From IMG/VR virus record IMGVR_UViG_3300009285_000028, positions 1 to 40,418 of that record: a stretch of DNA of 40,418 bases. One strand, given 5' to 3'. Under the pieces are notes generated by a model. The model saw only the letters and a list, made by a program, of their open reading frames with translations. It ran no database searches and was not told the origin of the DNA. Source of the stretch: a virus. A program made the translations under genes and the position numbers. This document shows, one piece after another, positions 2,184 through 40,418 of the stretch; positions within the stretch are counted from its first letter, which is position 1, and the number at the start of each line of letters is the position of its first letter.

Positions 2184-2869
2184 GCCGCCTGCGCCCGCTG
2201 GGGATGTTGGACCTGCGGCCCGACCGCCGCCGCCCCGTTCTGGCCGACGTGGCCGCGCGCCAGCAGTTCTACTCCGGGGCCATCACCACCACGCACACGA
2301 CGCTCGCCGTGAACGAGACCATCACCGCGTTCACCGACGAACTCCAGCGGTTCAGGGGCGTTCAGGTCGGGGCCGTGGCAGGGGGGACCGTCACGGTTCA
2401 GGTCCAAGCCGAGGGGCGGGACCTGTTCGACGACACCACGCGGCCTGTCTCCGGTGGCGAGGTCCAGCGGCCGACAGAGCCATACCTCATCCCTGCGGGC
2501 ACGCCCATCACCACCATCATCGAAGCTACCTCGGGGGTCCCCACGGGGACGGCGGGGGTGGTCATCGAGACCGAGCCCTTCGTGGTCCACCCACGCCCCG
2601 CCTGGGTGGAGTTGCGGGGCAAAGACCGCATGTTCGCTTCCCGCCGTCGTCAAGCCGAGGCGGCCAACCGTGGGGAGAGCCTGCTGCCCAGGAACTGGCT
2701 TGGGCGGATGGGGCGGCTCGACAGGGCGAGTCCCGAACTGGCATCTCCGGTCACGGCGGGCCAGTCAGCCAAGAGGCTACTCCATCGCACACCTGCGGAC
2801 CTCGGAGGTCGCCCGCCCCACCCCTCCGCCGGGGGTGGAAAGTCGGACTGGCCTCCATCTGCGCCCTAG
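2180..2869 (+). CDS. Hypothetical virion-module protein, 229 aa
   Basis: GTG 2180 in a GTGA overlap with the upstream stop. The C-terminal third is Arg/Pro/Gly-rich, so the true extent is uncertain. The TAG stop lies inside the motif copy at 2861-2875. Confidence 0.45.
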   Translation: MSRLRPLGMLDLRPDRRRPVLADVAARQQFYSGAITTTHTTLAVNETITAFTDELQRFRGVQVGAVAGGTVTVQVQAEGRDLFDDTTRPVSGGEVQRPTEPYLIPAGTPITTIIEATSGVPTGTAGVVIETEPFVVHPRPAWVELRGKDRMFASRRRQAEAANRGESLLPRNWLGRMGRLDRASPELASPVTAGQSAKRLLHRTPADLGGRPPHPSAGGGKSDWPPSAP

Positions 2870-2875
2870 ACACGG
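2861..2875 (+). promoter_or_regulatory. Recurrent motif copy A: GCGCCCTAGACACGG
   Basis: Exact 12-mer GCGCCCTAGACA shared with 17891 and 35311. Lies 20 nt upstream of ATG 2895, ahead of the lysis block. Confidence 0.5.
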
Positions 2876-2894
2876 GGGGCATCGTGCAGGTGAG

Positions 2895-3080
2895 ATGTTC
2901 ACCCCCGCGAGCACGCGCCCAGCCGCCGATATCGCTGACCTATTCGCGGAACAGGCGGCCACCCTCGCGAAGGTCGCCGACCTCAATCAGCGACTCACCC
3001 GTCTGGTTGCCGAGGTTACGGAGCTGAACGGGCAGGTCGTGGACATCCAGCGCCGACTCGACGGGACGGACCCCAAGTGA
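2895..3080 (+). CDS. Small coiled-coil protein, 61 aa
   Basis: ATG 2895 in the frame of track ORF 2454..3080 (the upstream part looks like a shadow frame). Heptad-like LAKVADLNQRLTRLVAEVTELNGQVVDIQRRL. Stop overlaps the next GTG (GTGA). Confidence 0.5.
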   Translation: MFTPASTRPAADIADLFAEQAATLAKVADLNQRLTRLVAEVTELNGQVVDIQRRLDGTDPK

Positions 3081-6351: not shown

Positions 6352-6720
6352 GTGAAGACCGAGATAGCGGGCTCCTACGGCGGCACCCAGATACACCTGC
6401 TCGACATCCACGGTGTCTCGTTCTGCGGCCTGGTCCCACGGCGCCTGCGGCCCGACTACGACGGGCGCACCGAATGGCACGAGATACTGGACTGGGAGCG
6501 GTGTCAGGTCTGCCGGGTCAATGACCCTCGCCCGTGGCCGGTCCATCGCTTTCACAAGGGGGTTCTGCTGCCAGCGCGGGAGGCAGCTCACCGAAGGCGC
6601 GAACGATGGACACGAGGTGTGGGTAAGAAGGCAGCGACGTTCCAAGCGCCCACTTCTCCACCGTTCGGGGATGCACGTAACTATGAGCAGATAGCCGCCA
6701 GGCCGCCTTCGCCTGGCTGA
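6352..6720 (+). CDS. Hypothetical protein; only the first ~65 codons look coding
   Basis: GTG 6352. High GC3 up to about 6550. The remainder overlaps the convergent HTH gene and looks like a shadow frame. Confidence 0.35.
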   Translation: MKTEIAGSYGGTQIHLLDIHGVSFCGLVPRRLRPDYDGRTEWHEILDWERCQVCRVNDPRPWPVHRFHKGVLLPAREAAHRRRERWTRGVGKKAATFQAPTSPPFGDARNYEQIAARPPSPG

Positions 6721-6787
6721 GTCTCTCCCGGCGCAAGAGGCCCCTCCACCACTCTCGAAACTCCGGGTCCTTCACCGTCGTGGGCAT
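6518..6787 (-). CDS. Helix-turn-helix regulator (Cro/CI-like candidate), 89 aa
   Basis: The only convincing minus-strand protein gene. Segment LSQAKAAWRLSAHSYVHPRTVEKWALG reads as an HTH. High GC3 at the 5' end. Start ATG 6787 (MPTTVKD). Confidence 0.6.
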   Translation of the reverse strand: MPTTVKDPEFREWWRGLLRRERLSQAKAAWRLSAHSYVHPRTVEKWALGTSLPSYPHLVSIVRAFGELPPALAAEPPCESDGPATGEGH

Positions 6788-6795
6788 GTAACCGG

Positions 6796-6824
6796 ATTCT
6801 ATCCACACCTGTTACACGGGTCGA
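6796..6824 (-). promoter_or_regulatory. Putative promoter of the HTH gene (-35 TCGACC, 17 nt, -10 TAGAAT), near-leaderless
   Basis: On the minus strand, TAGAAT (6796-6801) ends 8 nt before ATG 6787, and there is no SD. Confidence 0.4.
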
Positions 6825-7017
6825 TATCGTTCCCGCACAACCCCGCGAATCACACTCCTGTCATTCCCTGCACCTGCGACAGGGATGCAACTGCCTGCTA
6901 TGGCGATTAGGTCGGTGGCTCGCGCACGGGGGATGACTCCCGAAGACAACGCCAACCACAACCGATGGTGCTCCGCGCACCCCGCCGAAGAATGTGGGAC
7001 AAAAACGCCCCGCCTGC

Positions 7018-7047
7018 TTGACTTCCCCCGTTCTCGGGGCATAAGGT
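7018..7047 (+). promoter_or_regulatory. Putative early promoter TTGACT-18 nt-TAAGGT with the palindrome CCCCGTTCTCGGGG in the spacer
   Basis: -35 at 7018-7023, -10 at 7042-7047 (TANNNT), ATG 7055 lies 7 nt downstream, which suggests a leaderless mRNA. Confidence 0.55.
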
Positions 7048-7054
7048 TCGTTCC

Positions 7055-7489
7055 ATGGCCGCCGATAACGTGCGAAGTGGGGCTCCGACGGATGAGATTC
7101 CAGCGGTCGGATTCGTTCCCACCCCGGAGACCAACAAGCGTCCGTTCGCCGCGAGGACTGCGAGGAAATCTCCGGGCATTTCCCGGCTCCCCGCAAAGGA
7201 GGGGCGTACCGGCTCTCCATCCGAGCGAGTTGCGCCGGTCGAGGACTCCGCACCGAGACTCGGAAGTGCGGAGGGTGTAGCGGCGAACGGACCCTCCATG
7301 CCACAGGACCCGGAGACCAGCCTCTCCGAAACCCTTGCGCTGCTGCTGAGCATCGACGTAGCAGTGCATGACGTGTACCGGGGCTACATCGGTCCGATGG
7401 CGGCCGTGGACAGGATGAAAGACAACCTGCCCTCGGTCCTGCGGCTCGTGCGCTCGGCGCTGAGCGAGCTAACGGCGGGCGAGCGATGA
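7055..7489 (+). CDS. First early protein, 144 aa
   Basis: ATG at the predicted transcription start. The C-terminal 60 aa are helical and convincing; the N-terminal half is low-complexity (alternative start ATG about 7298). Confidence 0.5.
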   Translation: MAADNVRSGAPTDEIPAVGFVPTPETNKRPFAARTARKSPGISRLPAKEGRTGSPSERVAPVEDSAPRLGSAEGVAANGPSMPQDPETSLSETLALLLSIDVAVHDVYRGYIGPMAAVDRMKDNLPSVLRLVRSALSELTAGER

Positions 7490-7782
7490 CCACCTTCGCT
7501 TGCATCTTCTGCGGCCTCCGGGGACACGACCCCGAGAAGATGGAGCACCACCTGTTCGTCGAACATCACCACCGGGTCGGGCTAGACCCAACGCCCTCGC
7601 GCGAGGAACTACACCGCCACCTCGACGAGGAACACGACGAAGACGACTGGAATCGCTGTGTCCGCTGCCACGACAGGGGCTGGACCTGGACCCAGGGTCA
7701 TCGGTATGAGTCGTGCTCGCACGAGGAGCGAATCCTGGTCTGCAACCGCTGCGGGGAATACCGGGGAGATGAGCCCGCATGA
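7486..7782 (+). CDS. Zinc-finger protein, 98 aa
   Basis: ATGA overlap. Contains CIFCG...H..H, CVRCH and CNRCG pairs. Confidence 0.65.
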   Translation: MTTFACIFCGLRGHDPEKMEHHLFVEHHHRVGLDPTPSREELHRHLDEEHDEDDWNRCVRCHDRGWTWTQGHRYESCSHEERILVCNRCGEYRGDEPA

Positions 7783-12270: not shown

Positions 12271-12579
12271 ATGACCGAGAAGGGCTCCGTGGTGGAGCTT
12301 GCCGAGAAGTGGGCACACGCAGAAGCCCCAACAGAGGGCGACCCGATGAAGGTCATGCTCGTCGAGTTACTCACGGGCGAGATTCGGATTCTGGCGAACG
12401 AAGTCCTCCGACTTGTCTCCCTAGCAGAAGCGATGGAGCGGGTCATGGAGGCGGCGGAGGCGGTCGCCGGTAACGGCTACGACGCCGACGGTCGCTACAT
12501 CCTTATGGATGACCGCATGAACGCCCTCCGCTCCGCCCTCCAAGCCCTCCACTCCCTCGAAGAGGAGACAGAGAGATGA
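12271..12579 (+). CDS. Hypothetical protein, 102 aa; paralogue of 16709..17002
   Basis: Shares AEAMERV(M/V)EAA(E/K)A and nucleotide blocks with the second copy. Confidence 0.6.
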   Translation: MTEKGSVVELAEKWAHAEAPTEGDPMKVMLVELLTGEIRILANEVLRLVSLAEAMERVMEAAEAVAGNGYDADGRYILMDDRMNALRSALQALHSLEEETER

Positions 12580-14849: not shown

Positions 14850-14874
14850 GGGGCGGGGGCGGCTTCGTTGAGTC

Positions 14875-14985
14875 AAGGAGCGGTGGGACTCGAACCCACG
14901 ACCTCCGGGACTCGAGGGTCTCGCACGGGGGCGACCCGCACGGTTGCCCTTGCTCCCGGCGCTCTGCCAACTGAGCTACGCTCCC
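14875..14985 (-). tRNA. tRNA-like gene, 111 nt, with a 38-nt insertion in the anticodon loop (candidate loop CUCGAGU, anticodon CGA)
   Basis: The reverse complement folds as acceptor GGGAGCG/CGCUCCU, D arm GCUC-AGUUGGCA-GAGC, anticodon stem CCGGG/CCCGG, variable AGGUC, T arm GUGGG-UUCGAGU-CCCAC. There are 45 nt instead of 7 between the anticodon-stem halves. Confidence 0.6.
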
Positions 14986-15027: not shown

Positions 15028-15051
15028 GGGTATGCAACTAGCGACTACCCC

Positions 15052-15080
15052 TTGACATGGGCAGGGCACGGGTTCAGGAT
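15052..15080 (+). promoter_or_regulatory. Possible rightward promoter TTGACA-17 nt-CAGGAT restarting + strand transcription after the tRNA-like gene
   Basis: Perfect -35 hexamer but a weak -10. Followed by CTAGACGAGAGG and the SD of ORF 15116. Confidence 0.35.
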
Positions 15081-15115
15081 GAGGCTCGAAGGACTAGACG
15101 AGAGGAGGCATCGAG

Positions 15116-15542: not shown

Positions 15543-15745
15543 TGTCCGTCCAAGAGCTCGCGGCCATGATAGGCCAGCAAGGCACCGTGGAGGTCCGAGC
15601 CTCGGACAAGGAGACCTTCCGGGTGGCGGTCGTGGTCCTGGACGTGAAACAGGCGTACGGTCACACGAGAGCCCTGGTGGAGCCCGTAGCCGGCGAAGGG
15701 CGAGTGTGGGTAGGGTCGGAGCGAGTCAGGATGGAGGGGGCGTGA
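15539..15745 (+). CDS. Small protein, 68 aa, first of three with a conserved ...ERV(R/K)(M/V) C-terminus
   Basis: ATGA overlap; ends GSERVRMEGA. Confidence 0.55.
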   Translation: MMSVQELAAMIGQQGTVEVRASDKETFRVAVVVLDVKQAYGHTRALVEPVAGEGRVWVGSERVRMEGA

Positions 15746-15975
15746 TGACAAACGCACTGCGGGAAGGCGCAACGCCGGCGGTGCTGAGCATCTTGTCCGA
15801 TACGGCGCACGGTGAAGAGGTGGGATTCACGTTCGAGCGGGAGGACGGTACTCACGAGACGTTCAAGGTCCCCGTGGAGGCGTGGTGGGTACGCGCGCTG
15901 GCCCGAGACATGGTGCTTCGGCTCGTGGAGGGTCGGGTAGGGGCGGAGCGAGTCAAGATGGGGGGGGTGGAGTGA
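15745..15975 (+). CDS. Small protein, 76 aa, second of the ERV trio
   Basis: TGATG junction; ends GAERVKMGGVE. Confidence 0.55.
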   Translation: MTNALREGATPAVLSILSDTAHGEEVGFTFEREDGTHETFKVPVEAWWVRALARDMVLRLVEGRVGAERVKMGGVE

Positions 15976-16368: not shown

Positions 16369-16549
16369 GACGACGAACGAGGTCATCCTGCTCGACTGTC
16401 GCTGGTGCGGTCACCAGGGCGTGCATGGTGTCGAGATAGAGTTCCGCGACGACCTCGCCGATTGGCAGTGTGTCGACGCAAAGGCTTGCAACGAGCGGGA
16501 GGCCGTGGTTGCCGAGGAGAACGTCCAGGAGGGAGAGACAGATGGGTGA
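16361..16549 (+). CDS. Zinc-ribbon protein, 62 aa
   Basis: CRWCGH...C...C. Its start sits in the repeated junction GACAGATGGGTGAGA. Confidence 0.55.
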   Translation: MGETTNEVILLDCRWCGHQGVHGVEIEFRDDLADWQCVDAKACNEREAVVAEENVQEGETDG

Positions 16550-16712
16550 GAAGCTACGCAGGGTCGCAGCCGGTCTGGTCATCGTGGCCAGCCTCGGACT
16601 GAGCACCTACTTCCTGCCGGGCCAGCCCTGCTGGGGTGTGGGTCGGCACGAGGGAACCAAGGCGACGTTCTGGTGCGTCCCGACACCCCCGGAAGGAGTG
16701 AGCGTGCGATGA
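16542..16712 (+). CDS. Membrane/secreted micro-protein, 56 aa
   Basis: Same junction repeat; hydrophobic VAAGLVIVASLGLSTYF. Confidence 0.45.
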   Translation: MGEKLRRVAAGLVIVASLGLSTYFLPGQPCWGVGRHEGTKATFWCVPTPPEGVSVR

Positions 16713-17002
16713 GTGAGAGCGGAACGGCATACGGAGCACGGTACGACGGCGGTACGGTGGTGGAGGTGCTGGAGTATGCAGCGGGTGACCTTTACCTCGC
16801 AGCGATGGGCGAGGGCAATCCGTTGTCCGCTTCAGATGATGTGCGCGCCGCCATCCCCCGCGCAGAAGCGATGGAGCGGGTGGTGGAGGCGGCGAAGGCT
16901 TGGCGTGCGGGTTCAACCGCCGCGACAGACCAGGGCCTGGTCGGGGCGCTCAATGAGCAGCTCGCTGCCTCCACTCCCCCTCGAAGAGGAGACGAAGGTT
17001 GA
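16709..17002 (+). CDS. Hypothetical protein, 97 aa; paralogue of 12271..12579
   Basis: ATGA overlap; AEAMERVVEAAKA block. Confidence 0.55.
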   Translation: MSESGTAYGARYDGGTVVEVLEYAAGDLYLAAMGEGNPLSASDDVRAAIPRAEAMERVVEAAKAWRAGSTAATDQGLVGALNEQLAASTPPRRGDEG

Positions 17003-17169
17003 TGTTCGCCTGCGACAAGGATTACGACGCGAACCCGGACCTCAAGATGCTCTGTCCGCGTTCGTACGGAGCATGTGAGGTCTGTGGCAAGGTGACCCTT
17101 TGCTACGACGTTCCCGGAGCGTGGGCCTCCAGGGCCGTCCTTCGGGGCGGTCCTTGCGTTATGCCCTAG
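17002..17169 (+). CDS. Cys-rich micro-protein, 55 aa; last gene of the early block
   Basis: TGATG junction; 7 Cys including CEVCG. The stop TAG lies inside motif copy B. Confidence 0.45.
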   Translation: MFACDKDYDANPDLKMLCPRSYGACEVCGKVTLCYDVPGAWASRAVLRGGPCVMP

Positions 17170-17175
17170 ACAGAG
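17161..17175 (+). promoter_or_regulatory. Recurrent motif copy B: atGCCCTAGACAGAG
   Basis: The 10-mer GCCCTAGACA is shared with all copies. The downstream CCTGAG(C/G)GC sits at the same offset as in copy C. Confidence 0.45.
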
Positions 17176-17831
17176 GTGGAAGCCTGAGCGCAGTCCTGCA
17201 GGCGAGCAGGAGTCGGCGGGTGGGCCGGTCGGCCACCGAAGAGAGCCAGTATCCCCACGCCACCCCGGCAACGCGAACCGAACCCGCGTTCACCGTGGGC
17301 TTGCACGTCCTGAGGGATCTTGAGGACCATGAGAGGCTGAAGCGTGTAGGGCTCGTGGCCCTCCTTTGTTGAGGGTTCAGGGGTGCGGGGTAGGGGAGAG
17401 CTCGAGTCGAGTGGAGCGTCATCCATCCCTCATCCTGGGTTAGGAGGATGCCACCCGATACGCCACCCCGCCGTCTTGCCCGTGACCGCACCTACCGAGC
17501 GTGAGCCTCGTGCCTAGCTTACCGTAATCACCCTTATGGGCAGGTGTTTGCCCTGCTCAGCGCAGTGATGCGCATGGTGGGTGCTGATACGCACAGTGAG
17601 ATGGGGGCAGTAGCACTACGAACTTGCAGTGCTCTGTCCAACCCACCCCATGCCCCTGCGTACCCCATCTGACCAGGGGGTTTGCACCCGGTCCGTAAAA
17701 AGGAGGGTGTGGTGTTGTGTAGTGTGTCCCGCGTTCGTACGGTGAGAAATCGTTCTGAGTCGGCGTGAAGCGGAAGGAAACGTCGCCTAGCGGTTCGTGC
17801 CTGCGGCCCACTACCGAACCCTTGCTTCCGG

Positions 17832-17877
17832 GGCAGTGCCTTTCCCCCACGGGTCTGTCTGGGGGTCCTGCACTGCC
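17832..17877 (+). other. Extended two-tier hairpin (8 bp + 6 bp) just upstream of motif copy C
   Basis: GGCAGTGC/GCACTGCC pairs outside CCCCCA/TGGGGG, with a 10-nt apical loop and no U-tail. Confidence 0.6.
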
Positions 17878-17890
17878 GCAGTGACGTAGT

Positions 17891-17905
17891 GCGCCCTAGA
17901 CAGGG
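17891..17905 (+). promoter_or_regulatory. Recurrent motif copy C: GCGCCCTAGACAGGG
   Basis: 91 nt upstream of the first late ORF (17996). Confidence 0.5.
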
Positions 17906-17995
17906 GCGGTTTCCTGAGGGCGGGGTCGGTGGAAGACCCTTGTTCGCGTACGTGCGGTCCTCGGGGAAGTGCTGTGGAACGAAAGGGGCTCCGGT

Positions 17996-18103
17996 ATGGG
18001 CAAGAAGAGGGGCGGGGGTAAGCCCATCAAGGGCAAGACCACGAAGAAGCGCACCGGGGAGCGGGTCACGTACCCCAAGGGCCGGCCGCCCAAGCCGAGG
18101 TGA
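17996..18103 (+). CDS. Ultra-basic micro-protein, 35 aa (9 K, 5 R, 7 G; KGRPPKPR AT-hook-like end)
   Basis: 34 of 35 codons end in G/C. Sequence MGKKRGGGKPIKGKTTKKRTGERVTYPKGRPPKPR. Confidence 0.55.
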   Translation: MGKKRGGGKPIKGKTTKKRTGERVTYPKGRPPKPR

Positions 18104-18111
18104 GGTCCCTG

Positions 18112-18225
18112 ATGCCGGCGAAGAAGAAGATGACCCCCAAGCGCAAGGGCATGCACAAGATGCCTGGCGGCAAGATGATGACCGACGCCCAGATGAAGGC
18201 CATGAAGAAGAAGGGCATGAAGTAG
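18112..18225 (+). CDS. Met/Lys-rich micro-protein, 37 aa (9 M, 12 K)
   Basis: SD GAGGTGAGG upstream. 36 of 37 codons end in G/C. Sequence MPAKKKMTPKRKGMHKMPGGKMMTDAQMKAMKKKGMK. Confidence 0.55.
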   Translation: MPAKKKMTPKRKGMHKMPGGKMMTDAQMKAMKKKGMK

Positions 18226-18246
18226 GTGCCCCCGACTGGGGACTAG

Positions 18247-20133
18247 ATGCCCACCCGCACAGACCGACCCCTGCTCATCGACACCTCCGTGAAACGCCGT
18301 GGGCGCGAGGTGCAGGCGCGGCTGCGTAAGAGGTCGGGGACCAAGAACTTCCGCACCATGGACCTGGCTGAAGAGGTCGCCAAGCTCATGGAGCCGCCCA
18401 ACAGGTGGCCGAAGTACCTCATCGCCCAGTCCCTCGGCATCACCGAGCGCAGGGTGGCTCAGGCGCTGGCGTATCGGGCGAAGACGATGCACACCAAGCC
18501 GCTGTACGAGGACATCACCGACGAGGCGCGGGCGATGCTCGCGTGGTCGGTGGACGCCTTCGAGCGGTTCTTCATCACCTTCTCCGGGTACGACTCCTTG
18601 CCCAACCACGTCCGTCCCTGGATAGCGGCCTTCCTGGCACAGCGGAACCTCATCTTGAACGTGCCTCCCCGCCACGCGAAGTCCACCTACTTCATGGTCT
18701 GGATACCCATATGGCTCATCTGCCGGGACCGCAACGTGCAGTTGCTGCTCGTGTCCAAGACGCACGAGTTCGCGCAGAACTGGGCGCTGGAGATTGCGGC
18801 GAACCTCGAGCACAACGAGGGGCTCATCAAGGCGTACGGGGCCTTCAAGGCCGACAAGGAGGGCGACCAGAAGTGGAAGCCCAACTCGGGCACGTTCACC
18901 GTGCTCGGACGGACCAAGACCATCCGGGGCGCGCAGTTCACCGTCGAGTCTCGGGGCATGAACGGCCAGGTGCTCGGCCGTGAGGCGGACTTCATCATGG
19001 TGGACGACCCCACCGACCAGGAAGAGGCCGAATCCGAGACCTCGCGCCGACGCGAGCTGAAGCACCTCCAGGAGCAGGTGTTCACCCGCGCCGAGCCGCA
19101 GGCCGACAAACCCGGCGGACGCATCGCCGTGGTCGGTCAGAGGGTTCACCTGCTGGATGTGTACGGCACGCTCGCCAAGATGGAGTGGGAGATAGGTCCG
19201 AACAAGGGCGAGAAGCTCTGGCACGTCGAGAAGTACCCCGCCGTCTTGGACTGGGACTCCAAGCGGGTCCTGTGGCCGGAACGCCACTCGTGGGACGAGT
19301 TGATGCTCACCTACGCCCGTGTGGGCGGGCACGGGCCGTTCTCGACCCTGTTCCAGCAGGAGCCGCTGCCGGAGGGCTCGGCGCTTGTGACTCAAGCATG
19401 GGTCGAGGGTTGCCGCGACCACTCCCGCAACGCCTTCCAAGGGATGCGTGTGGACGACGCCGGGGCGCAGGTGCCGGTCGTCCGGGTGCTGTCGTTGGAC
19501 CCATCGCCGACGAAGTTCAACGGCATCGTCGTTGGGGACCTGTTCTACAACAAGGACCGCTTCGTGTTCGCCATGACCGAGGCTTACCGCCTCCAGGCGG
19601 GGCAGTACGGGGTCAAGGCCAAGGTGGACGAAATCATCAACCGGGCCAAGCCCGACTACTTCATCTTCGAGGAGTCCGGGTTCCTGCACTGGTTCCGAGA
19701 CGACCCGTGGTTCATGGAGCTGAAGGACCGCGTGAAGCTCGAGCTGCACCACACGGGCGCGAACAAGAACAGCATGGAGTACGGCGTGCAGTCCCTCGCC
19801 GGCGACTTCGAGTTCAAGAACCTCTCGTTCCCCTACGGCGACGACGAGGCGCGGCGCATGAGCGACCTGGTGTCAGGCGAAGCGCTCATCTACCCCTACG
19901 GCGAGACCACCGACATGCTGATGGCGCTGTGGTTCATCAAGTTCAACTACAAGCGCCTCTCTCCGGTGAGGTTCCTGCCCACCCGCGTCAAGGGGACCGA
20001 AGGCAGAGACACCACATGGAGTTGGTACAAGCAGTTGAAGGGCAAGAAGAACACACAGGAGGCGGCCTACCAGAAGTACAAGGCCGACAAGGCCAAGCGG
20101 CAGGCCGAGATGAGGAAGGTGGCAGTTGGCTGA
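18247..20133 (+). CDS. terL: Terminase large subunit with an N-terminal ~100-aa HTH-containing extension
   Basis: Walker A-like NVPPRHAKST, Walker B-like ADFIMVDDP and acidic nuclease-type blocks (VLSLDPS, FIFEESG). Followed by an overlapping portal-size gene. Confidence 0.85.
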   Translation: MPTRTDRPLLIDTSVKRRGREVQARLRKRSGTKNFRTMDLAEEVAKLMEPPNRWPKYLIAQSLGITERRVAQALAYRAKTMHTKPLYEDITDEARAMLAWSVDAFERFFITFSGYDSLPNHVRPWIAAFLAQRNLILNVPPRHAKSTYFMVWIPIWLICRDRNVQLLLVSKTHEFAQNWALEIAANLEHNEGLIKAYGAFKADKEGDQKWKPNSGTFTVLGRTKTIRGAQFTVESRGMNGQVLGREADFIMVDDPTDQEEAESETSRRRELKHLQEQVFTRAEPQADKPGGRIAVVGQRVHLLDVYGTLAKMEWEIGPNKGEKLWHVEKYPAVLDWDSKRVLWPERHSWDELMLTYARVGGHGPFSTLFQQEPLPEGSALVTQAWVEGCRDHSRNAFQGMRVDDAGAQVPVVRVLSLDPSPTKFNGIVVGDLFYNKDRFVFAMTEAYRLQAGQYGVKAKVDEIINRAKPDYFIFEESGFLHWFRDDPWFMELKDRVKLELHHTGANKNSMEYGVQSLAGDFEFKNLSFPYGDDEARRMSDLVSGEALIYPYGETTDMLMALWFIKFNYKRLSPVRFLPTRVKGTEGRDTTWSWYKQLKGKKNTQEAAYQKYKADKAKRQAEMRKVAVG

Positions 20134-22246: not shown

Positions 22247-25200
22247 ATGCCCATCCTGTTCGAGGGTCCGGTCGAACCGGAGGCACCGGAGGAGCCGAAG
22301 GCCCCTCGTCCGACGGACGTGCCCGCCCCCCGCAGGCGAGGTGAGTTCGCCCCTGCTGTAGCGACCCATACCGCCTCAGCCGCCGAACTGCTGGCGAACG
22401 CCTCCGCCATCCAGGCTCAGCGTGTGGCGTCGGTGTTCGAGGGTGTGAACGATACGGCCCTGTATCAAGTGCCGGACACGCTTGTCTGGACCGGGGTGCA
22501 GGAGAACAGCACCGTGCTCACAGCATCGGTCAACGACGCGGCATCGTTCTTCGCTCGCATCTACGGTGGCGACAACCTCGCGGCCTTCATGACGGCGGAT
22601 GTCTTCGGCGACCCGGTGCAGACCGAGCGCACGATGGCGACGTTGGCCTACCTCCGGGGGTTCGCAACGACCGCCTACGCGCGGGATGGAACACCCATCT
22701 TCCAGGCAGGCGGCTCGGGGTCGCAGGAACGCGGCATGGAACTCCTGCGTCAGGTGCTCGCCAACAGCGGCTCCACCGCCGGACTCACCGAGGCGGAGCG
22801 GGCGCAGGTTGGCACGCTGGCGCAGACGCTCTACACGAACCTACAGACCCTCCCGGACACCGGCACCTCGCTCGCGTTCAAGACGGCGGTTGCGGTGGGA
22901 GCGACCCAGGATGTCACCCTCGCGCTGTCAGCCGATGAGGTGGCCACCCTGGAGCGTTACGTCCAGGCGGAACTCGGTCAACTCGGGGGGCTGCGGCAGA
23001 CCGGGGAGACTCCCACCCTCGCATCGGTGGGCATCGAGCAGGTGCGCCAACTGAACGATGGCGTCATCGTGCTCGACCGGGACTTCGCCAAGGCGAACCC
23101 CGCTGAGGCGTACGCGGTCGAGACATGGCTCCACCAGAACTACCCGGAGCTGGAGATTCAGTACGACCGTCAGGGCGTGGTCGGCTCGCTGCTCGACAAG
23201 TTCGGGATGGGAGTGGACTACCTCACCGCCCCCATCGCGGCCGGGGCCATGCAACTGAAGGAGTTCGGGGAACAACTCTCCAACAGCCCGGAGGACCGGG
23301 CCAGGATGCTCGCACGGGCAGACGAACTCGAGCAACAACTCATGCGTGGCGAGGTCCCCGAAGCGGACGTGGAACGCACGTTGAGCGACATCGCTTTGCT
23401 GCGTGACATAGGAACGGTAGAGGTGGGCTGGCAGCAGTACCAGGACGACGTGTTTCGGGGCACCAATGCGCGCATAGCCGGCTTCGGGTTCGCCGACACC
23501 ATCATGCGCTCGTCCGGCATGATGCCCGGAGACCCAGGGTACGGAGCCACCTACGCCGTCGTGGGCCTACTGTCCAACATCATCGCCGACCCCTTCAACA
23601 TCGGTCTCCTCGGTCTTACGGGCGCGCGTAGCGCACGGCTCATCGCGACGTTGGAGAAGGGTGTCGTCCCCGCCGACGTGGGCAGGGGCATCGTGCGCGC
23701 GACCGCCTATCGAGCACTCGCGAAAACCCCCGAGGAGATGCTCGTCACGCGCCCCATGATGCAAGCGGCCGACCGCCTCTACGAGATGCGCACGGCGCTC
23801 GGACCCGATGAGTTCGCCGGGATGCTCGCAGGCTTCTATCACGATGAGCGCGGCCTGGGCGGCGGAGCGGAGGCTGCGCACCTGCTGTCCCAGGCGACGA
23901 GTTCGGAGGACATGGCGATAGCGATGGTCTCCACCCAGTTCCCGATAGCGGGTGGGGGGTTGCCCATCGAGCCGCTCATGGAGCGCATGAACGAAGCGAC
24001 CAGACTGCTCGACCGGGAGGCCGAACTTCCGGGGCTCATCAATGCATCACAAGACCCGGCACTCGTCCCCGGCCTGCAAGCCGAACTCGATGTCCTTCGG
24101 TCGCAGCACACGGACCTCATCGCGCAACGCGGCCTGTACTCGTCCATCGTCGAAGGTACGGAGTGGGTACGCCCCGTCAGGCAGGTATTCAGCTCGCGCC
24201 AGATACGCAGGTTGGAGCGTCTGACCGGCGAGCGCCTCGATGCGCGGATGCGAGCGTTCGAGGCTGCGACCGCATCTGTCGAGGGCTTGCCTGCGGACGT
24301 GCTCCGTGCCGGGCCGGATGCCATCGCCGCGCACATCGCGGCCAATCCCAACGTGGAAGCGACCACCGCTATCTTGATGCGGCGTGCTCGCAGGGCGTTC
24401 ACCCCCTCGGGTGCCGGTGAGGTGCTGACGTTCCCCCACACCTCGGACCAAGCGGCGGCAGTAGCCAACCTGTTCAAGAAGGGGCGGCTCCTGGCCGACC
24501 ACAGGGAGGAATCGTTCGCCCGCATCCTCGGACTCGGCCGCCGGTTCGGACTGTCGGATTCCCGCGTCGAGGAACTGGTGCGTCCCTGGGTTGCAGGCGA
24601 ACTCACCGGCCCCTCCGCGAGCTATCGGTGGTGGACGAAGACCTGGGAGAGCTTCGTAGACGAGTCCCCGCTCCTTGGGGCGGCGGGCAAGGAGAAGCTC
24701 GCCAAGATGTGGGACACGCCGCTCGAGGGTCGCCCCACGGGGCTCATCGAGACGCGCGGCGCATCGGGGTTCGCCGAGTACGAGCCGGTCTGGTACAAGA
24801 GCGAGGTTGAGCCCGTCACCGGCCTGCTCGAGCGCAAGCCCCTGCCCGACGCCGAGGCGTTCATGTTCCAGACCTGGACCGCCCCGAGCGACGAGGCTAT
24901 CACCGCGTACATCTCGCACGCGCAGCGCACCGTGAACGAATGGCGGAAGACTGGCGGCTGGGGCAAGCGGTCAATCTCGCTCGCGCACCTGCGGCTGGCG
25001 CAACTGTGGAGCGGCTGGAACCACCTGTGGCGCACCGGGGCGCTCATCTTCCGTCCCATCGCGTGGCCCGCCCGCGTCATGGGCGAAGAGATGGTGCGGA
25101 TAGCGACCTTCGGCTACTCCTCGCTCGTGAACAACCCCATCGAATGGTTGCTGTCCACCAAGATGGGGACGCGGCTGTTCAAGAGCACCGACTTCGCGCT

Positions 25201-28200
25201 CATGGGCGAGTCACCAACGCACGCGCTCGGCGGGCTCATGGGCATCATGGAGAACAACCCGAACCTGCGCCTCGCGCAGCTCGGGACTCAGGAGGTCTCT
25301 ATCGCCAGCGGCCCCGCCTTCTGGCGTTCCTACGCGGACACGCTGTCCCGGCAGTACGCCTCGCCCTCGGTGCGTGTTCAGTTGCGATACATGGACCACC
25401 CCGCTTCCGCGCTTGCCGCCATCGAGGCGAGCGACGACGGGGCCTGGTGGCTCGCGCACGTCGCCGAGTCGGACTTCACCCCGCTGGAGGCCATCGCTCG
25501 CAAGCAGGAGCAGTTGCGCCAGCTCCTCGGCTCGGGCGAGGACGCGGACCTAGTTCGCACCGCACTCACTCGTGGTGCAGTCTCGGTAGACGGCGAGGTC
25601 ATCGAGGTCGGCTCTGATGGGTTCGCGGCGTTCCTGGAGAAGCTGGCGAACGAGGGGCGCTGGACGCCGGGCATCTCCACGCTCCCGCGCTCCGCCGGGG
25701 ACTACCTGCCCGTATCGCGCATGAGCGCGGCGACCGAAGTCACGGGGCGTGCGTTCTCGTTCTTCGCCACCGCGCCGGATAACGCGCTGGCCCGCAGCCC
25801 GCTCTGGCGGCAGATGGCCGCACGGGAGTTCCGCGACCTCGTACGGCGCGGCTACAGCAAGGAACGTGCGCTCGAGATGGCCCGCGCCTGGGCTGCCAGG
25901 GGCACCCGCGACACACTGTTCACCATCGGGGCGCGCACCCCCGGTGAGGTGTGGTTGCGCAACGTCAACCCGTTCTTCCCCGCCTACCGCGAGTTGGCCG
26001 ACACCTGGCTCATCCGCGCCGGTCAGCGGCTCGGCAACAGTTCGTGGGCGCTTGGCGTGGGCAAGATGGGGCGGCGTGTCGATGTCTGGATGGACTTCTT
26101 CTCCAACATGGGTCTCATCCGCCGGGATGAGCGGGGCAAGATGTATGTGCCCATCCCCGGCCTGGGCGGCATCATCTCCGCGTTCACCGGAGCCAACGTC
26201 GAGTTCGATTCGAGGGCTCCGGCCGACACGTTCGCGGGCGTGCTGCCGACCCCCATCGGGGTCATGGACAAGGACGAGGAAGGCAACCCGCTGCCCTGGT
26301 ACAAGCGCCTCCAGGGGCTTCTGCCGACGCTCGGCGGTCCCGCTACGTTCGTCCTCGGTGCCATGAACGACCTCTTCGGCGGGGAACTCGACGCCGCCGA
26401 GAACTGGCTGACGCTCTACGGCACGGACGCATCGCAGGGTCCCACGTCCATCGACCGCGCACTCGAGGCGTTCGGGTTCGTCGCTCCGTGGATGACCGCC
26501 ACGACCCGCGAGATGCACGAGGCAACGCGGACCTGGGCCGTGGTCGATGGTATGCGCATCGCCGCCAGCGAGACACCCGCCCCGAGCTACGTGGAGTTCG
26601 ATGCCGACGGCGATGGGGAACTCACCACCGACGAGATGCAAGCCTACGCGGAAGCCGACCGCCAGTGGAAGCTGGACCTGCTGAACCGTGGAGAGCGGTA
26701 CGCGCAGCGGTTCTACCTGCTCCGCTCCGTCATGAGCGCCGTCTTGCCGTTCTCCGTCGCCTCGTCCGATGAGGCCAAGCAGCAGATGAGCGCCGTCTGG
26801 ACGATGCTGAACGCCATCCCCGACAAGGCGGGGGGAGGCGAGTTCAAGTCCGCCCTGCTCGACGCCATCCTGGCCGAGTACCCCCAGTTGGGCGCGTACA
26901 TGACCGGCAAGACCCAGGACTTCCGACCGGGCATCGTGAAGCCCGAGGAGAACCTGGAGGAGTGGATGCAGGCGGTCAAGAACGGGGAGGTCAAGGTCCG
27001 CAACGCTACGGACTGGGCCGTGTTCGCCTCGGGCATGAACAGCTACTCCATCTTCCAGTCGCGCATCGACGCCATCTTCGAGGAGGCCGGCCCGGTCGCG
27101 GCCGATTGGCTGGTCAACTTTGCCGGCAAGGAAGAGGTCGCCCAGGAGAAGGCGAAGTGGCAGGTGTTCCTCGACGCCTCCGAGGTACGGGAGAACTGGC
27201 TGCTGCCCGACCAGACCAAGGGCTTCGCCACGATGCTCGATGACTACTTCGACCTCAAAGCCATCCACGAGGGGGAGGCCACCGACCTCACGCTGGAGCA
27301 GCAGCGGCTCCTTGACCTCACCGGGCTGATGCGGGAGTTCTCGCTGTCGCTCACGCCCAACGAGCCGAGCACGGATGACTACTACAAGCTCCGGGACCAG
27401 GCGTACGCGGCGCTCGGCCCCCCCAAGGGCGAGATAGGCAAGGGCGTGGACTGGTGGTTCTCCACGGTCAACACCCCCTACTACGACGAGCTGCACGCGC
27501 TGGCCGACACGCTCGATGCCACGGAGCCGAGGAACCAGGGTCCCATCTACGCCCAGATGAACGCGGTGCGCAACGCCTACTACCACGGCTGGACCGACCC
27601 CAAGCATCCCGAGTGGGGCGAGTTCGTCTCACCGGAGGAGTATGGCTTCATCGCGCTCACGCCCGAGGAGCGGACGCATCAGGTCGCGGCGTGGGCCAAC
27701 CTGCCGGCCGGGTTCCTCTCGCAGTTCCAGCGGGAGCAGGTCGGCTACGACATCCCCGAGGACAAGCAGGACAAGGCATCGGACTTCGTGGCGATGGTGG
27801 ACCGCGCCAACCGCAAGTTCGAGAAGTACGTGGTGCAGCACGACCTGTCCTACGCCTCGACGGCCATCAAGGATGCGCGTGCGAAGCTCGACGCGGCGTT
27901 CGCCGAAATCGCAGACGAGCGCGGGCTGAGCGCCTTCTGGAAGCAGGCCAACATGGCCGAATACCAGCGGGTGGACCTGGCGCTGAACCTCTCGGAGACA
28001 TCGGCCTCGTGGAAGCACGTTACGCGCCTCGCCACCTCCCTGCGGAACTACATCGAGTCGCAGGATTACGTCCCCGGCGGCTCATCTGCGCTCGCCGAGC
28101 AGGGGCGGACGTGGTTCGTCAACATGGTCACGAAGGTGCGCGGGAACGACGCGGGGTTCGATGACCTGATGAGCGACCTTCAGGTGGCACTGGGAGACAA

Positions 28201-28291
28201 GGGCTCGCCCCTTGCCGACCAAGAGATAGTTGAGACGCTGTTCTTCGACGTATGGAGCACATCAAACTCGTTCTACCTGGACAGGAGGTAA
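22247..28291 (+). CDS. Giant virion-module protein, 2014 aa (internal/ejection protein candidate) with an EF-hand-like loop
   Basis: Uninterrupted 6045-nt ORF with high GC3 throughout. DADGDGELTTDE is encoded at 26600-26635. Confidence 0.85.
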   Translation: MPILFEGPVEPEAPEEPKAPRPTDVPAPRRRGEFAPAVATHTASAAELLANASAIQAQRVASVFEGVNDTALYQVPDTLVWTGVQENSTVLTASVNDAASFFARIYGGDNLAAFMTADVFGDPVQTERTMATLAYLRGFATTAYARDGTPIFQAGGSGSQERGMELLRQVLANSGSTAGLTEAERAQVGTLAQTLYTNLQTLPDTGTSLAFKTAVAVGATQDVTLALSADEVATLERYVQAELGQLGGLRQTGETPTLASVGIEQVRQLNDGVIVLDRDFAKANPAEAYAVETWLHQNYPELEIQYDRQGVVGSLLDKFGMGVDYLTAPIAAGAMQLKEFGEQLSNSPEDRARMLARADELEQQLMRGEVPEADVERTLSDIALLRDIGTVEVGWQQYQDDVFRGTNARIAGFGFADTIMRSSGMMPGDPGYGATYAVVGLLSNIIADPFNIGLLGLTGARSARLIATLEKGVVPADVGRGIVRATAYRALAKTPEEMLVTRPMMQAADRLYEMRTALGPDEFAGMLAGFYHDERGLGGGAEAAHLLSQATSSEDMAIAMVSTQFPIAGGGLPIEPLMERMNEATRLLDREAELPGLINASQDPALVPGLQAELDVLRSQHTDLIAQRGLYSSIVEGTEWVRPVRQVFSSRQIRRLERLTGERLDARMRAFEAATASVEGLPADVLRAGPDAIAAHIAANPNVEATTAILMRRARRAFTPSGAGEVLTFPHTSDQAAAVANLFKKGRLLADHREESFARILGLGRRFGLSDSRVEELVRPWVAGELTGPSASYRWWTKTWESFVDESPLLGAAGKEKLAKMWDTPLEGRPTGLIETRGASGFAEYEPVWYKSEVEPVTGLLERKPLPDAEAFMFQTWTAPSDEAITAYISHAQRTVNEWRKTGGWGKRSISLAHLRLAQLWSGWNHLWRTGALIFRPIAWPARVMGEEMVRIATFGYSSLVNNPIEWLLSTKMGTRLFKSTDFALMGESPTHALGGLMGIMENNPNLRLAQLGTQEVSIASGPAFWRSYADTLSRQYASPSVRVQLRYMDHPASALAAIEASDDGAWWLAHVAESDFTPLEAIARKQEQLRQLLGSGEDADLVRTALTRGAVSVDGEVIEVGSDGFAAFLEKLANEGRWTPGISTLPRSAGDYLPVSRMSAATEVTGRAFSFFATAPDNALARSPLWRQMAAREFRDLVRRGYSKERALEMARAWAARGTRDTLFTIGARTPGEVWLRNVNPFFPAYRELADTWLIRAGQRLGNSSWALGVGKMGRRVDVWMDFFSNMGLIRRDERGKMYVPIPGLGGIISAFTGANVEFDSRAPADTFAGVLPTPIGVMDKDEEGNPLPWYKRLQGLLPTLGGPATFVLGAMNDLFGGELDAAENWLTLYGTDASQGPTSIDRALEAFGFVAPWMTATTREMHEATRTWAVVDGMRIAASETPAPSYVEFDADGDGELTTDEMQAYAEADRQWKLDLLNRGERYAQRFYLLRSVMSAVLPFSVASSDEAKQQMSAVWTMLNAIPDKAGGGEFKSALLDAILAEYPQLGAYMTGKTQDFRPGIVKPEENLEEWMQAVKNGEVKVRNATDWAVFASGMNSYSIFQSRIDAIFEEAGPVAADWLVNFAGKEEVAQEKAKWQVFLDASEVRENWLLPDQTKGFATMLDDYFDLKAIHEGEATDLTLEQQRLLDLTGLMREFSLSLTPNEPSTDDYYKLRDQAYAALGPPKGEIGKGVDWWFSTVNTPYYDELHALADTLDATEPRNQGPIYAQMNAVRNAYYHGWTDPKHPEWGEFVSPEEYGFIALTPEERTHQVAAWANLPAGFLSQFQREQVGYDIPEDKQDKASDFVAMVDRANRKFEKYVVQHDLSYASTAIKDARAKLDAAFAEIADERGLSAFWKQANMAEYQRVDLALNLSETSASWKHVTRLATSLRNYIESQDYVPGGSSALAEQGRTWFVNMVTKVRGNDAGFDDLMSDLQVALGDKGSPLADQEIVETLFFDVWSTSNSFYLDRR

Positions 28292-39676: not shown

Positions 39677-40418
39677 GCCTGAGTCAGGCCACACTCGTCC
39701 AGCGTGTCCGGTGGGAACTCGGGGACCGCCCCTGGGAGGATTCCGCCCTCACGGCCGCCTCTGCCTCCTCGACCATCACGGGGGCCACCACGGGCTACTG
39801 GGTGAAGGGAGACATCGGGGAGTTCATCGAGGACGGCGACACGTGGCTGACCATCTCCGAGACCACGGGAACCATCACGGCAACCCGCTCCTACGACGGC
39901 TCCACCGGGGCCGCGCACACCACCAAGCGTGGCCTGAAGAACCCCCGCTATCGGTACAACGAAATCGTCAACGCCATCGAGTCCGTCATCCAGGACCAGC
40001 TCTGGCCGAAGGCCTGGAAGAAGGTGGCCGACACCATCACGCCGCTGTCCACGACGACGTGGTACGACCTCGCTGCCGAGGCGCGGGGCCTCATCAACGT
40101 GCGGCAGCTCTACGGGACCAGCGACGCCAAGGAAGGGCGCTACGGGGGACGCCACAGCGCCTACCCGGTCTGGTTCCGACGCAACATGACCACGAGCCTC
40201 GTCACCTCGGGCGTGGGACTGCGGTTCCCCGGCGGCATGTACCACGCCTCCAACACGGTGAACGTGGACTACGCCGCCAAGATAACGGACACCATCGCCA
40301 CCCCCAACCACTCAGACCTGAGTGACGGCGATGCCGTGGTCGAGGCCATCATCTTCGGGGCGGTCTCCCACCTCGAGGGGGCGCTCGAGAACCGCAAGCC
40401 GCGCAAGCCGCGCCAGGA
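39673..40418 (+). CDS. Virion protein, 288 aa in total, truncated by linearisation (continues as 78..198)
   Basis: ATGA overlap at 39673. The open frame runs to the window end and is in frame with 1..198. Confidence 0.7.
   Translation, partial: MSLSQATLVQRVRWELGDRPWEDSALTAASASSTITGATTGYWVKGDIGEFIEDGDTWLTISETTGTITATRSYDGSTGAAHTTKRGLKNPRYRYNEIVNAIESVIQDQLWPKAWKKVADTITPLSTTTWYDLAAEARGLINVRQLYGTSDAKEGRYGGRHSAYPVWFRRNMTTSLVTSGVGLRFPGGMYHASNTVNVDYAAKITDTIATPNHSDLSDGDAVVEAIIFGAVSHLEGALENRKPRKPRQ
40342..40418. repeat. Second copy of the 77-nt terminal repeat
   Basis: Identical to nt 1-77. Confidence 0.95.

Follow-up and report, generated by a model that had tools for sequence, protein, structure and literature searches.

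The viral genome IMGVR_UViG_3300009285_000028 from IMG/VR, analyzed here over the whole record of 40,418 nucleotides (the window), has between its early and late genes a gap (17170 to 17995) that is real, non-coding, and conserved among relatives in position and in blocks of sequence. An initial annotation had seen in this stretch a candidate large non-coding RNA or a packaging or replication locus. We consider it highly probable that the gap is composite and not a single RNA; more tentatively, the explanation that we favor is a composite early/late control region of an actinobacterial phage, in which a small RNA (sRNA) gene is combined with packaging or late-operon control. The first part (17163 to 17372) would be a small transcription unit, with a promoter-like motif (copy B) in front of a multi-hairpin RNA of ~190 nucleotides (nt) that ends at a hairpin with a T-rich tail. 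The second part (17375 to 17995) would serve as DNA-level signalling of the late/packaging module, with a promoter-like block (17509 to 17545) followed 135 to 210 nt on by a bipartite element (17686 to 17732, here Block VI) and then by motif copy C, upstream of the first late genes. The bipartite element is flanked by two CTGnnCAG sites such as a dimeric DNA-binding protein recognizes; at this element and its sites the terminase would recognize the DNA and start packaging, the start being a pac site or a concatemer junction read through by late transcription. Transcription of the region and its strand, the promoter action of the motifs, and the packaging role are inferred here.

The gap is flanked by the stop codon of the open reading frame (ORF) 16999-17169 and by the ATG at 17996, and the earlier observation that no credible ORF is present holds, since 17170 to 17995 contains just short ORFs overlapping on both strands. 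In a six-frame comparison among 11 relatives, the same nucleotides were matched in several frames and on both strands; most indels with respect to the closest relative (L021) have lengths not divisible by three, and mismatches fall on the three codon positions as 83/95/77. A hidden small protein was rejected by the six-frame comparison and the absence of codon periodicity in the substitutions. The location at the early/late junction was also right: small early-type ORFs lie on one side and the first late genes (two tiny basic ORFs, the terminase TerL, and a portal-like gene) on the other. A stretch of 650 to 1000 nt without a called gene is found upstream of TerL in every relative with upstream DNA recovered (TerL identity 43 to 65%). 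The reported lack of bias in GC content at third codon positions (GC3) is correct in that periodicity is absent in the gap, but it is weak evidence, as most early genes show little GC3 periodicity too. That this is the only long gap of the genome could not be established, because 6361 to 7501 is likewise without periodicity or clear coding signal and holds only competing ORFs that could not be annotated. This second stretch (>1 kb, ORFs on both strands, no PHROG matches) coincides with the cumulative GC-skew minimum of the genome (~6-7 kb), holds a 16-nt inverted repeat (7137/7280), and may be another non-coding or origin-like region.

Alignment of the gap with those of L002, L004, L012, L013, L014, L021, L022, L023, L064, and L065 (TerL 51 to 65% identical) shows conserved islands between indel-rich spacers. 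The shared layout begins with a motif copy (GCCCTTGACW; GCCCTAGACA in the window), a 5' domain, a G-rich block, Block III (CGTGCCTAGCTTGnCATAAT..TTATGGGCA), TGCCCTGSTCAG, and a variable stretch, and goes on with a C-rich CCACCCCAT, a second CTGSTCAG, Block VI, GGAA-N4-TTCC, a second motif copy with TTTCCTTGGGG, and the late genes. The relatives come from a set of 121 found in metagenomes through TerL (E<=1e-30). Comparison of the gap region with GenBank phages by blastn revealed no similarity, and TerL is only ~25% identical to the terminases of Streptomyces and Mycobacterium phages; hence, as judged from these comparisons, the phage belongs to an uncultured family without a cultured member. 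A prophage and host search over 185,579 genomes found no member of the family either (the top match, at 32%, was an Actinomycetota metagenome-assembled genome). The WhiB-like protein encoded by the phage indicates that its host is probably actinobacterial.

The hairpins listed in the initial annotation exist, but the region is no more hairpin-dense than its composition gives. The minimum free energy of the whole gap has a z score against dinucleotide shuffles of -0.68 on the plus strand and -1.44 on the minus strand, and in 150-nt windows over 11 relatives the mean folding z ranges from -0.9 to +0.2; since the gap folds no better than shuffled sequence, the visible hairpins are explained by GC composition. 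A single structured RNA of ~650 nt of the GOLLD/ROOL type, extending from motif copy B to the hairpin at 17832 to 17877, would fit a region that is ORF-free and positionally conserved, opens with a motif copy, closes with a large hairpin, and covaries locally within the first 190 nt. Nevertheless, such an RNA is very improbable. The gap matches no Rfam family (GOLLD [RF01998], ROOL, HEARO, OLE, raiA, and all others): a cmscan of the window at the gathering threshold detected only a tRNA at 14875-14985, the gap region scanned at E<=10 gave a single chance snoRNA match outside the gap, and 16 relatives gave no match. In addition to the folding z scores near 0, globally and by windows, there is no consensus structure from 17505 onward in 9 to 11 relatives, a terminator-like hairpin lies within the supposed transcript (17348 to 17372), the 5' domain shows no demonstrable homology across sub-lineages, the hairpin at 17832 to 17877 is specific to the window, and one repeated site (site R2, below) flips its orientation among relatives. 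Hence, what survives of the large-RNA proposal is a probable RNA in the first ~190 nt (17186 to 17372), where base pairs do covary with L021, a conserved pairing that is absent from 17505 on. In a long ORF-free stretch of a high-GC phage, visible hairpins are thus no ground for one ornate RNA, as composition suffices here.

The candidate structured sRNA at 17186 to 17372 was obtained with RNAalifold against L021 and is placed on the plus strand. Its helices are H1 (17194-17211, loop AGGCGA), a GGCC/GGCC hairpin (17219-17237), H2 (17270-17290, loop AACCGAACC), an enclosing helix (~17249-17304), and, as the last one, a terminator-like hairpin (17348-17362) followed by CCTTTGTT, which was also picked up by the terminator scan; in L021, the matching relative place is occupied by a hairpin with TTCCTTGCGT after it. 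The two genomes share a gapless block of 125 nt with 73% identity, in which H1 is TCCTGC-AGGCGA-GCAGGA in the window and TCGAGC-AGGCGA-GCTCGA in L021 (two pairs swapped, loop kept) and H2 is AACGCG-AACCGAACC-CGCGTT and AAGCGG-AACCGAACC-CCGCTT, respectively (three pairs swapped, loop kept). Over 17181 to 17375, RNAalifold predicts 43 pairs: both partners differ in 13 of them and one partner in 2, and none is broken. Sliding the 3' partners by one to three columns left 0 to 3 compensatory pairs. Coding controls were also run, because RNAalifold with two sequences always selects consistent pairs; windows of TerL and the portal gene from the same two genomes (62 to 70% identity) gave 3 to 10 compensatory pairs (mean, ~5.6), with about as many one-sided changes. 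The covariation of the 5' domain with L021 is therefore real but moderate, ~3 standard deviations. A covariance model built from the window and L021 (model R2) matched these two and no further members, and a DNA-pattern scan of IMG/VR for this sub-lineage of the RNA gave one chance match, in coding DNA. The sequence CTGAGCGCAGTCCTGC, found where the candidate sRNA begins (17184-17199), recurs as CTCAGCGCAGTGATGC just past Block III (17556-17571), and both units may be ancient duplicates.

An analogous cassette occurs at the matching position in six relatives (L002, L065, L004, L022, L023, and L012) as a domain of 125 nt, which in L002, L065, and L022 begins 17 nt past a motif copy (TTGACW-N17-(C/G)CACAG); in L023, a motif copy is found upstream as well. 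The domain has 28 consensus pairs, 12 of them changed on both sides, as in GCC-GUCAGAG-GGC versus CGG-GUCAGAG-CCG or AGCUC/GAGCU versus CGAC/GUCG. Paired cells make up 89.7% of the alignment (74% in shuffles), and its covariation score of 0.445 (0.178 in shuffles) was reached by none of 500 shuffles, with slid controls at 0.04 to 0.11; six-sequence TerL controls from the same loci gave 0 to 6 double-changed pairs, with consensus energies that were much weaker. A search with a covariance model of this domain (model R1) turned up an unseen seventh member, L067, with 62 bits and on the strand opposite to TerL, and with seven relatives the score stays at 0.42 to 0.45 (0.16 to 0.18 in shuffles), with 12 to 13 double-changed pairs. 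In L067, the cassette (2443-2600) lies between Block VI and TerL, with GCCCTTGACC-N17-CCACAG upstream of the domain; two copies of GCCCTTGACC stand there back-to-back, 10 nt apart, forming a perfect 10-bp inverted repeat, and one of them faces TerL. Since its changes of place and orientation are shared by the upstream motif, the cassette behaves like an independent transcription unit, and it is better supported than the window's own domain. Model R1 does not match the window, so that homology between the RNAs of the two sub-lineages is not demonstrated by these models; with model R2 confined to the window and L021, one conserved ornate RNA of ~650 nt is not what these phages share.

Several observations weigh against a small RNA in the window. 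The folding z of 17181-17375 is +0.75, no better than shuffles, and the same applies to the domain in the seven relatives (-0.72 to +0.69). The window's own domain depends on one relative, and its covariation is no weaker when the reverse complement is used, G-U pairs giving no strand assignment; because of this symmetry, the strand is assigned from the motif, the terminator, and the inversion in L067. Symmetric changes in palindromic protein sites could also mimic part of the covariation. Carried further, this would make the whole region ordinary intergenic DNA with promoters, terminators, and operator palindromes, where dimeric regulators and their palindromic sites account for the covariation and no functional RNA exists. 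The strand symmetry, the folding z near 0, the "compensatory" pairs that two-sequence RNAalifold yields in coding DNA too, and relatives such as L016, whose gap is full of CGAAC-N6-GTTCG palindromes and short iterons, agree with this. We find it improbable, considering that each domain has six to eight different helices, some nested or enclosing, with asymmetric conserved loops (AGGCGA, AACCGAACC, and GUCAGAG) atypical of operators; that the signal exceeds matched coding controls (12 versus at most 6 pairs; 13 versus a mean of 5.6); and that the L067 cassette moves and inverts with its motif. The nested helices and asymmetric loops favor a folded single strand over palindromic sites. On balance, the evidence leans toward a small RNA in the first ~190 nt, which, we infer, would be a trans-acting or 3'-end-derived phage sRNA. 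If so, the family gains a covariation-supported small RNA absent from Rfam.

The gaps of more distant relatives are crowded with short repeats. In L016, positions 2150-3000 hold the CGAAC-N6-GTTCG palindromes and GGCAGGCACG iterons, and those of L015, L084, L090, and L093 hold repeated 8-9-mers (GACCTAGG, GGTCTTTAG, or GACTTTAG). The five also contain canonical sigma-70-type promoters and resemble an operator or immunity-type region.

As described initially, exact copies of a motif bracket the region (17163 and 17893), and CCTGAG(C/G)GC follows copies B and C at equal offset. Copy B (GCCCTAGACAGAGGTGG, 17163 to 17179, plus strand) includes in its TAG the stop codon of ORF 16999-17169 and comes after a terminator-like hairpin at the 3' end of this last early ORF (AGGGCCGTCC-TTCG-GGGCGGTCCT followed by TGCGTT, 17131 to 17160, plus strand), detected in the scan for hairpins with T tails. 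Copy C (GCCCTAGACAGGGGCGGTTTCCTGAGGG, 17893 to 17920, plus strand) was identified from the sequence and the alignment of relatives, which have GCCCTTGACTG...TTTCCTTGGGG at its place, ~100 nt upstream of the first late ORF. The motif is not confined to this region, with further plus-strand copies at 2864, 30344, and 35314. Genome-wide there are five matches when 0.87 would be expected, a number not reached in any of 100 shuffles; the five copies of GCGCCCTWGACA (2864, 17164, 17894, 30344, and 35314) are all on the plus strand and at gene junctions, several just past a hairpin, and in three cases (2869, 17169, and 35319) the ORF upstream ends in the motif's TAG. A minus-strand copy, CCCTAGACA, is found at 14851. 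At the place of copy B, the relatives have GCCCTTGACW, which resembles a -35 element, and an equivalent copy precedes the RNA domain in L002, L065, L022, and L023 and is inverted in L067; this last genome also uses GCCCTTGACW for leftward genes, there with TACGGT after it. The motif is thus likely to be a -35-type promoter element, and if this is true, its copies outline the transcription units of the phage.

A sigma-70 promoter scan of 16500-18500 found no site. The copies have a good -35-like TTGACW or TAGACA, but most lack a TAnnnT 17 to 18 nt downstream (the -10 is absent after 2864, 30344, and 35314 on the plus strand and 14851 on the minus strand), which weighs against promoter action, as does the fact that TAGACA taken as a -35 with standard spacing puts the start site inside H1. 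A canonical promoter-like TTGACA-17-CAGGAT was noticed at 15049-15085, facing the cluster of small genes from 15255 on.

Downstream of the candidate RNA, the picture is one of sequence blocks without a common fold (plus strand except where noted). The G-rich block GGGTTCAGGGGTGCGGGGTAGGGGAGAG (17375 to 17402) aligns with GG(T)AG(A/G)GAGAG-type sequences at the same place in relatives. Block III (CGTGCCTAGCTTACCGTAATCACCCTTATGGGCA, 17509 to 17545), conserved in 9 loci, has the form cTTGnCATAAT in relatives, mostly TGnCATAAT, which resembles an extended -10, and distant relatives have canonical TTGACA-17/18-TAnnnT or TGnTATAAT sites 135 to 210 nt upstream of Block VI; the window's own version is degenerate (TTACCGTAAT). 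Site R1 (TGCCCTGCTCAG, core CTGnnCAG, 17549 to 17560) is the only exact copy in the genome and is conserved after Block III in relatives. The C-rich and G-poor Block V (ACCCACCCCATGCCCC..., 17640 to 17668), conserved as CCACCCCAT in most close relatives, precedes site R2 (CCCCCTGGTCAG on the minus strand, 17669 to 17680), the inverted partner of R1. R2 is inverted in the window and L014 and direct in L002, L021, L022, and L064, a change that an RNA signal could not tolerate and a CTGnnCAG DNA site bound by a dimer can, which argues for a site acting as DNA. Approximately 22 nt past Block VI is a small inverted repeat detected with RNAalifold, AGAA-ATCG-TTCT (17746 to 17757; family consensus, GGAA-N4/5-TTCC). 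The hairpin at 17832 to 17877 (46 nt, imperfect, with 18-nt arms that are 78% complementary) is an insertion upstream of motif C that is absent from the aligned relatives, and it may be a terminator or an insulator. RNAalifold found no consensus pairing for Block III (9 sequences) or from Block V to VI, and from Block VI to motif C (11 sequences) nothing beyond the 4-bp GAA/TTC stem. These conserved blocks without conserved pairing, together with the inverted site, point to DNA-level signals as the likely content of the remaining ~520 nt.

The most conserved element of the region is Block VI (17686 to 17732, plus strand; nhmmer and pattern search), which consists of CCCGGTCCGTAAA, ~27 nt without C (AAGGAGGGTGTGGTGTTGTGTAGTGTG), and TCCCG, and has the family form GGTCCRTAAA, ~27 C-poor nt, and a C-run. 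The A-rich spot and the TG-rich tract pointed out in the initial annotation are real and belong to it. An nhmmer hidden Markov model made from 12 sequences finds Block VI in 14 distinct loci, and by pattern it also occurs in L085, L088, L089, L084, L067, L069, L009, and L090, 22 loci in all. When these are aligned on TAAA, G is present at -6 and -5 in 21 to 22 of the 22, C at -2 in 21, and a purine at -1. The 25 nt after TAAA contain 6.9% C versus 29% in the flanks (Wilcoxon p=5e-7), figures that are somewhat inflated because 10 of the 22 instances were chosen by eye. The tract often consists of micro-repeats (TG, GGT, GTAGA, and TAGA), and the C-run is constant at +32 to +35. A hairpin just before Block VI, suspected by eye, was rejected (mean z, -0.33 over the 22 loci), and a degenerate pattern scan of IMG/VR gave 34 matches that were essentially all chance by nhmmer. 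Block VI is a previously undescribed cis element. In the 22 loci, it is always in the orientation of TerL, down to ~35-45% TerL identity, including L015, L016, L018, L020, L084, L089, L090, and L093, whose early genes are on the opposite strand and read away from the gap. Therefore, it belongs to the late/packaging module and not to the early/replication module.

The core of Block VI and site R1 are unique in the genome, and the element lies 550 nt upstream of TerL. A unique site next to the terminase genes with repeats that look like protein-binding sites is what a cos or pac region has, a feature that is necessary and not sufficient. TerL is a long protein (628 amino acids [aa]); several relatives have a precomputed Pfam match to the helix-turn-helix (HTH) domain PF13384, and no gene is recognizable as a small terminase subunit. 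Its only NCBIfam match is NF033889 (termin_lrg_T7; residues 125-277), at 28.4 bits versus a cutoff of 150, and no match was found among PDB sequences. The uniqueness of Block VI, its tie to TerL and its flanking repeats, the long TerL with an HTH match in relatives and no separate small subunit, the single curated family match, of T7 type although far below threshold, and a likeness to the T7 terminal repeat that is a lead only make a packaging role for the bipartite element conceivable, and we propose it tentatively; a packaging site or genome termini, alternatives already named in the initial annotation, are thereby our best guess for the 3' half. Other observations speak against it. The contig ends of relatives within the gap, used as a stand-in for physical termini, show no clustering at a single position; the assembly of the window is circular; and the resemblance to T7 is short and partly judged by eye, with the T7-family match of TerL at 28 bits versus 150.

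The main rival to packaging is that the 3' half is a late-operon promoter with a leader, in the manner of lambda pR'-6S-tR', and that Block VI is a site of transcription control. A constitutive promoter at Block III would produce a short leader stopping near Block VI, for instance by Rho at the C-rich, rut-like Block V, an arrest that a phage factor would later relieve by antitermination or activation. In relatives both close and distant, a promoter-like element does precede Block VI by a constant 135 to 210 nt, with canonical TTGACA-N17/18-TAnnnT or TGnTATAAT in L015, L083, and L085, a C-rich and G-poor tract lies just 5' of Block VI, the orientation of Block VI is tied to the late genes, and the phage encodes a WhiB-like regulator. 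However, Block VI has neither a hairpin-plus-U terminator nor a conserved RNA fold, motif C between Block VI and the late genes looks like a proximal promoter, the Block III of the window is a poor promoter (TTACCGTAAT) and none was found by the scan, and the invertible CTGnnCAG site is no RNA signal. Termination control of a leader seems to us somewhat unlikely.

Less likely still is a replication origin, possibly RNA-primed like that of the cluster A parABS mycobacteriophages, in which a promoter-driven structured RNA would form an R-loop at the G-rich block, the repeated sites would be iterons, and the C-poor tract of lower GC would unwind. ORF-free RNA-based origins of ~600 bp that lie beside parABS and replicate autonomously have been described in those phages (Wetzel et al. 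2020, PMC7157519), so that transcribed origins of this kind have a precedent in actinobacteriophages; here, a G-rich block comes after the candidate structured RNA, R1 and R2 are two copies of one site, and the strand-asymmetric 25-nt tract has a lower GC content than its flanks. What makes an origin quite unlikely is mainly the link of Block VI to the late module, as it keeps the orientation of TerL in relatives with an early module on the opposite strand, and the position of the cumulative GC-skew minimum near 6-7 kb, elsewhere in the genome. There is also no similarity to any GenBank phage, two repeats are not an iteron array, and no parABS or recognizable initiator was found among the proteins scanned.

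The packaging proposal can be extended to an undescribed transcription-coupled packaging-initiation site, made of Block VI and the promoter 135 to 210 nt upstream and read by a TerL with its own DNA-binding domain, the adjacent lineage-variable sRNA being a new class of phage RNA in the early-to-late or packaging switch. This is speculative and we regard it as unlikely. If the composite reading favored above is right, the family gains a sharply defined cis element at the beginning of its packaging/late module, by which genomes of this kind could be oriented and delimited in metagenomes.

Regarding the rest of the genome, the window represents a phage genome of 40,341 bp in circular assembly, with bases 1-77 identical to 40342-40418. 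This end identity sits in coding DNA and corresponds to the k-mer overlap of circular assembly, not to a biological terminal repeat. The GC content is 65% and nearly all long ORFs are on the plus strand. The first 17 kb encode an exonuclease, an HNH/NinG-type nuclease, and the WhiB-like regulator, and the late module has the order TerL (18247-20133), weakly portal-like gene, 2014-aa ORF, and major-head-like protein. Directly 5' of TerL are two tiny and extremely basic ORFs (17996-18103 and 18112-18225; 35 and 37 aa); the relatives also have short basic peptides before TerL, with the pattern "S.AQRRY..A.HPE.A..W..KYG" and no family match. The 2014-aa ORF (22247-28291), after the portal-like gene, has no Pfam or PHROG match, and its place is occupied in relatives by ORFs of 1685 to 2781 aa. 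A function as virion RNA polymerase was rejected, as its sole DxDxD motif (aa 1452, DADGDGELTTDE) is an EF-hand-like calcium loop. The tRNA-like gene at 14875-14985, the sole minus-strand feature of an otherwise plus-strand genome, matches the Rfam tRNA model over its full length (54 bits) with an insertion of 45 nt in the anticodon loop, is not called by ARAGORN, and is followed by the minus-strand motif copy; L016 has an odd 93-nt "tRNA-???" adjoining its gap. Four 39-nt repeats, spaced by 123 to 144 nt, lie within a late ORF (36900-37328). Two pairs of repeats (12416-12461 versus 16854-16899 and 15708-15740 versus 15935-15967; 33 to 46 nt, 87 to 91% identical) between small early genes suggest paralogous small genes.

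Among known systems, the large ornate RNAs (GOLLD, ROOL, HEARO, OLE, and raiA) are similar to the gap in their association with phages and in the long ORF-free stretch, but the gap has no covariance-model match, no thermodynamic signal, no conserved fold past ~190 nt, and a 5' domain that is not conserved across the phage family. The cluster A parABS origins are also ORF-free regions of ~600 bp in actinobacteriophages, variable among relatives and thought to act via a non-coding transcript; however, they lie mid-genome by parABS and serve prophage maintenance, while the gap adjoins the terminase, has no sequence similarity to them, and comes without parABS in the proteins scanned. With the lambda-type cos (cosQ-cosN-cosB, with R sites) or a headful pac, the gap shares a unique element a few hundred nt upstream of the terminase, nearby repeated sequences that look like protein sites, and a late transcription that would read through on circular or concatemeric DNA. 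It differs in having no sequence similarity and no separate small terminase gene recognized, and the fixed-length C-poor tract of Block VI is matched by nothing in cosN or cosB.

The end of the T7 terminal repeat (NC_001604, bases 1-400), which is G/T-rich (...GTGTCCCT / ...GAGTGTCTCTCTGTGTCCCT) and carries CCTAAAG/CATAAAG heptamers, resembles Block VI, although we take this as a lead only. The T7 junction and the gap are both non-coding and beside a terminase gene, with CATAAAG/CCTAAAG-type heptamers and a G/T-rich, C-poor tract that runs up to ...GTGTCCC(T/C); each is also preceded, at a short and fixed distance, by a promoter (phiOR in T7, only promoter-like in the gap). Unlike in T7, TerL here comes first in the late module, followed by the portal-like gene and the 2014-aa ORF, no phage RNA polymerase was found, and the element occurs once and not in heptamer arrays. 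Phage sRNAs with their own promoter and terminator include lambda OOP and 6S, P22 sar, and the non-coding RNAs seen in mycobacteriophage RNA-seq. The candidate has no sequence or Rfam kinship to any described RNA and, unlike these sRNAs, differs between sub-lineages of one family; it is similar to them as a short, ORF-free, multi-hairpin unit between gene modules, with a promoter-like motif before it, a T-tailed hairpin at its end, and either strand possible, as in L067. The region is therefore a new example, in an undescribed family, of known kinds of elements, namely, a phage sRNA gene and an early/late control and packaging region.

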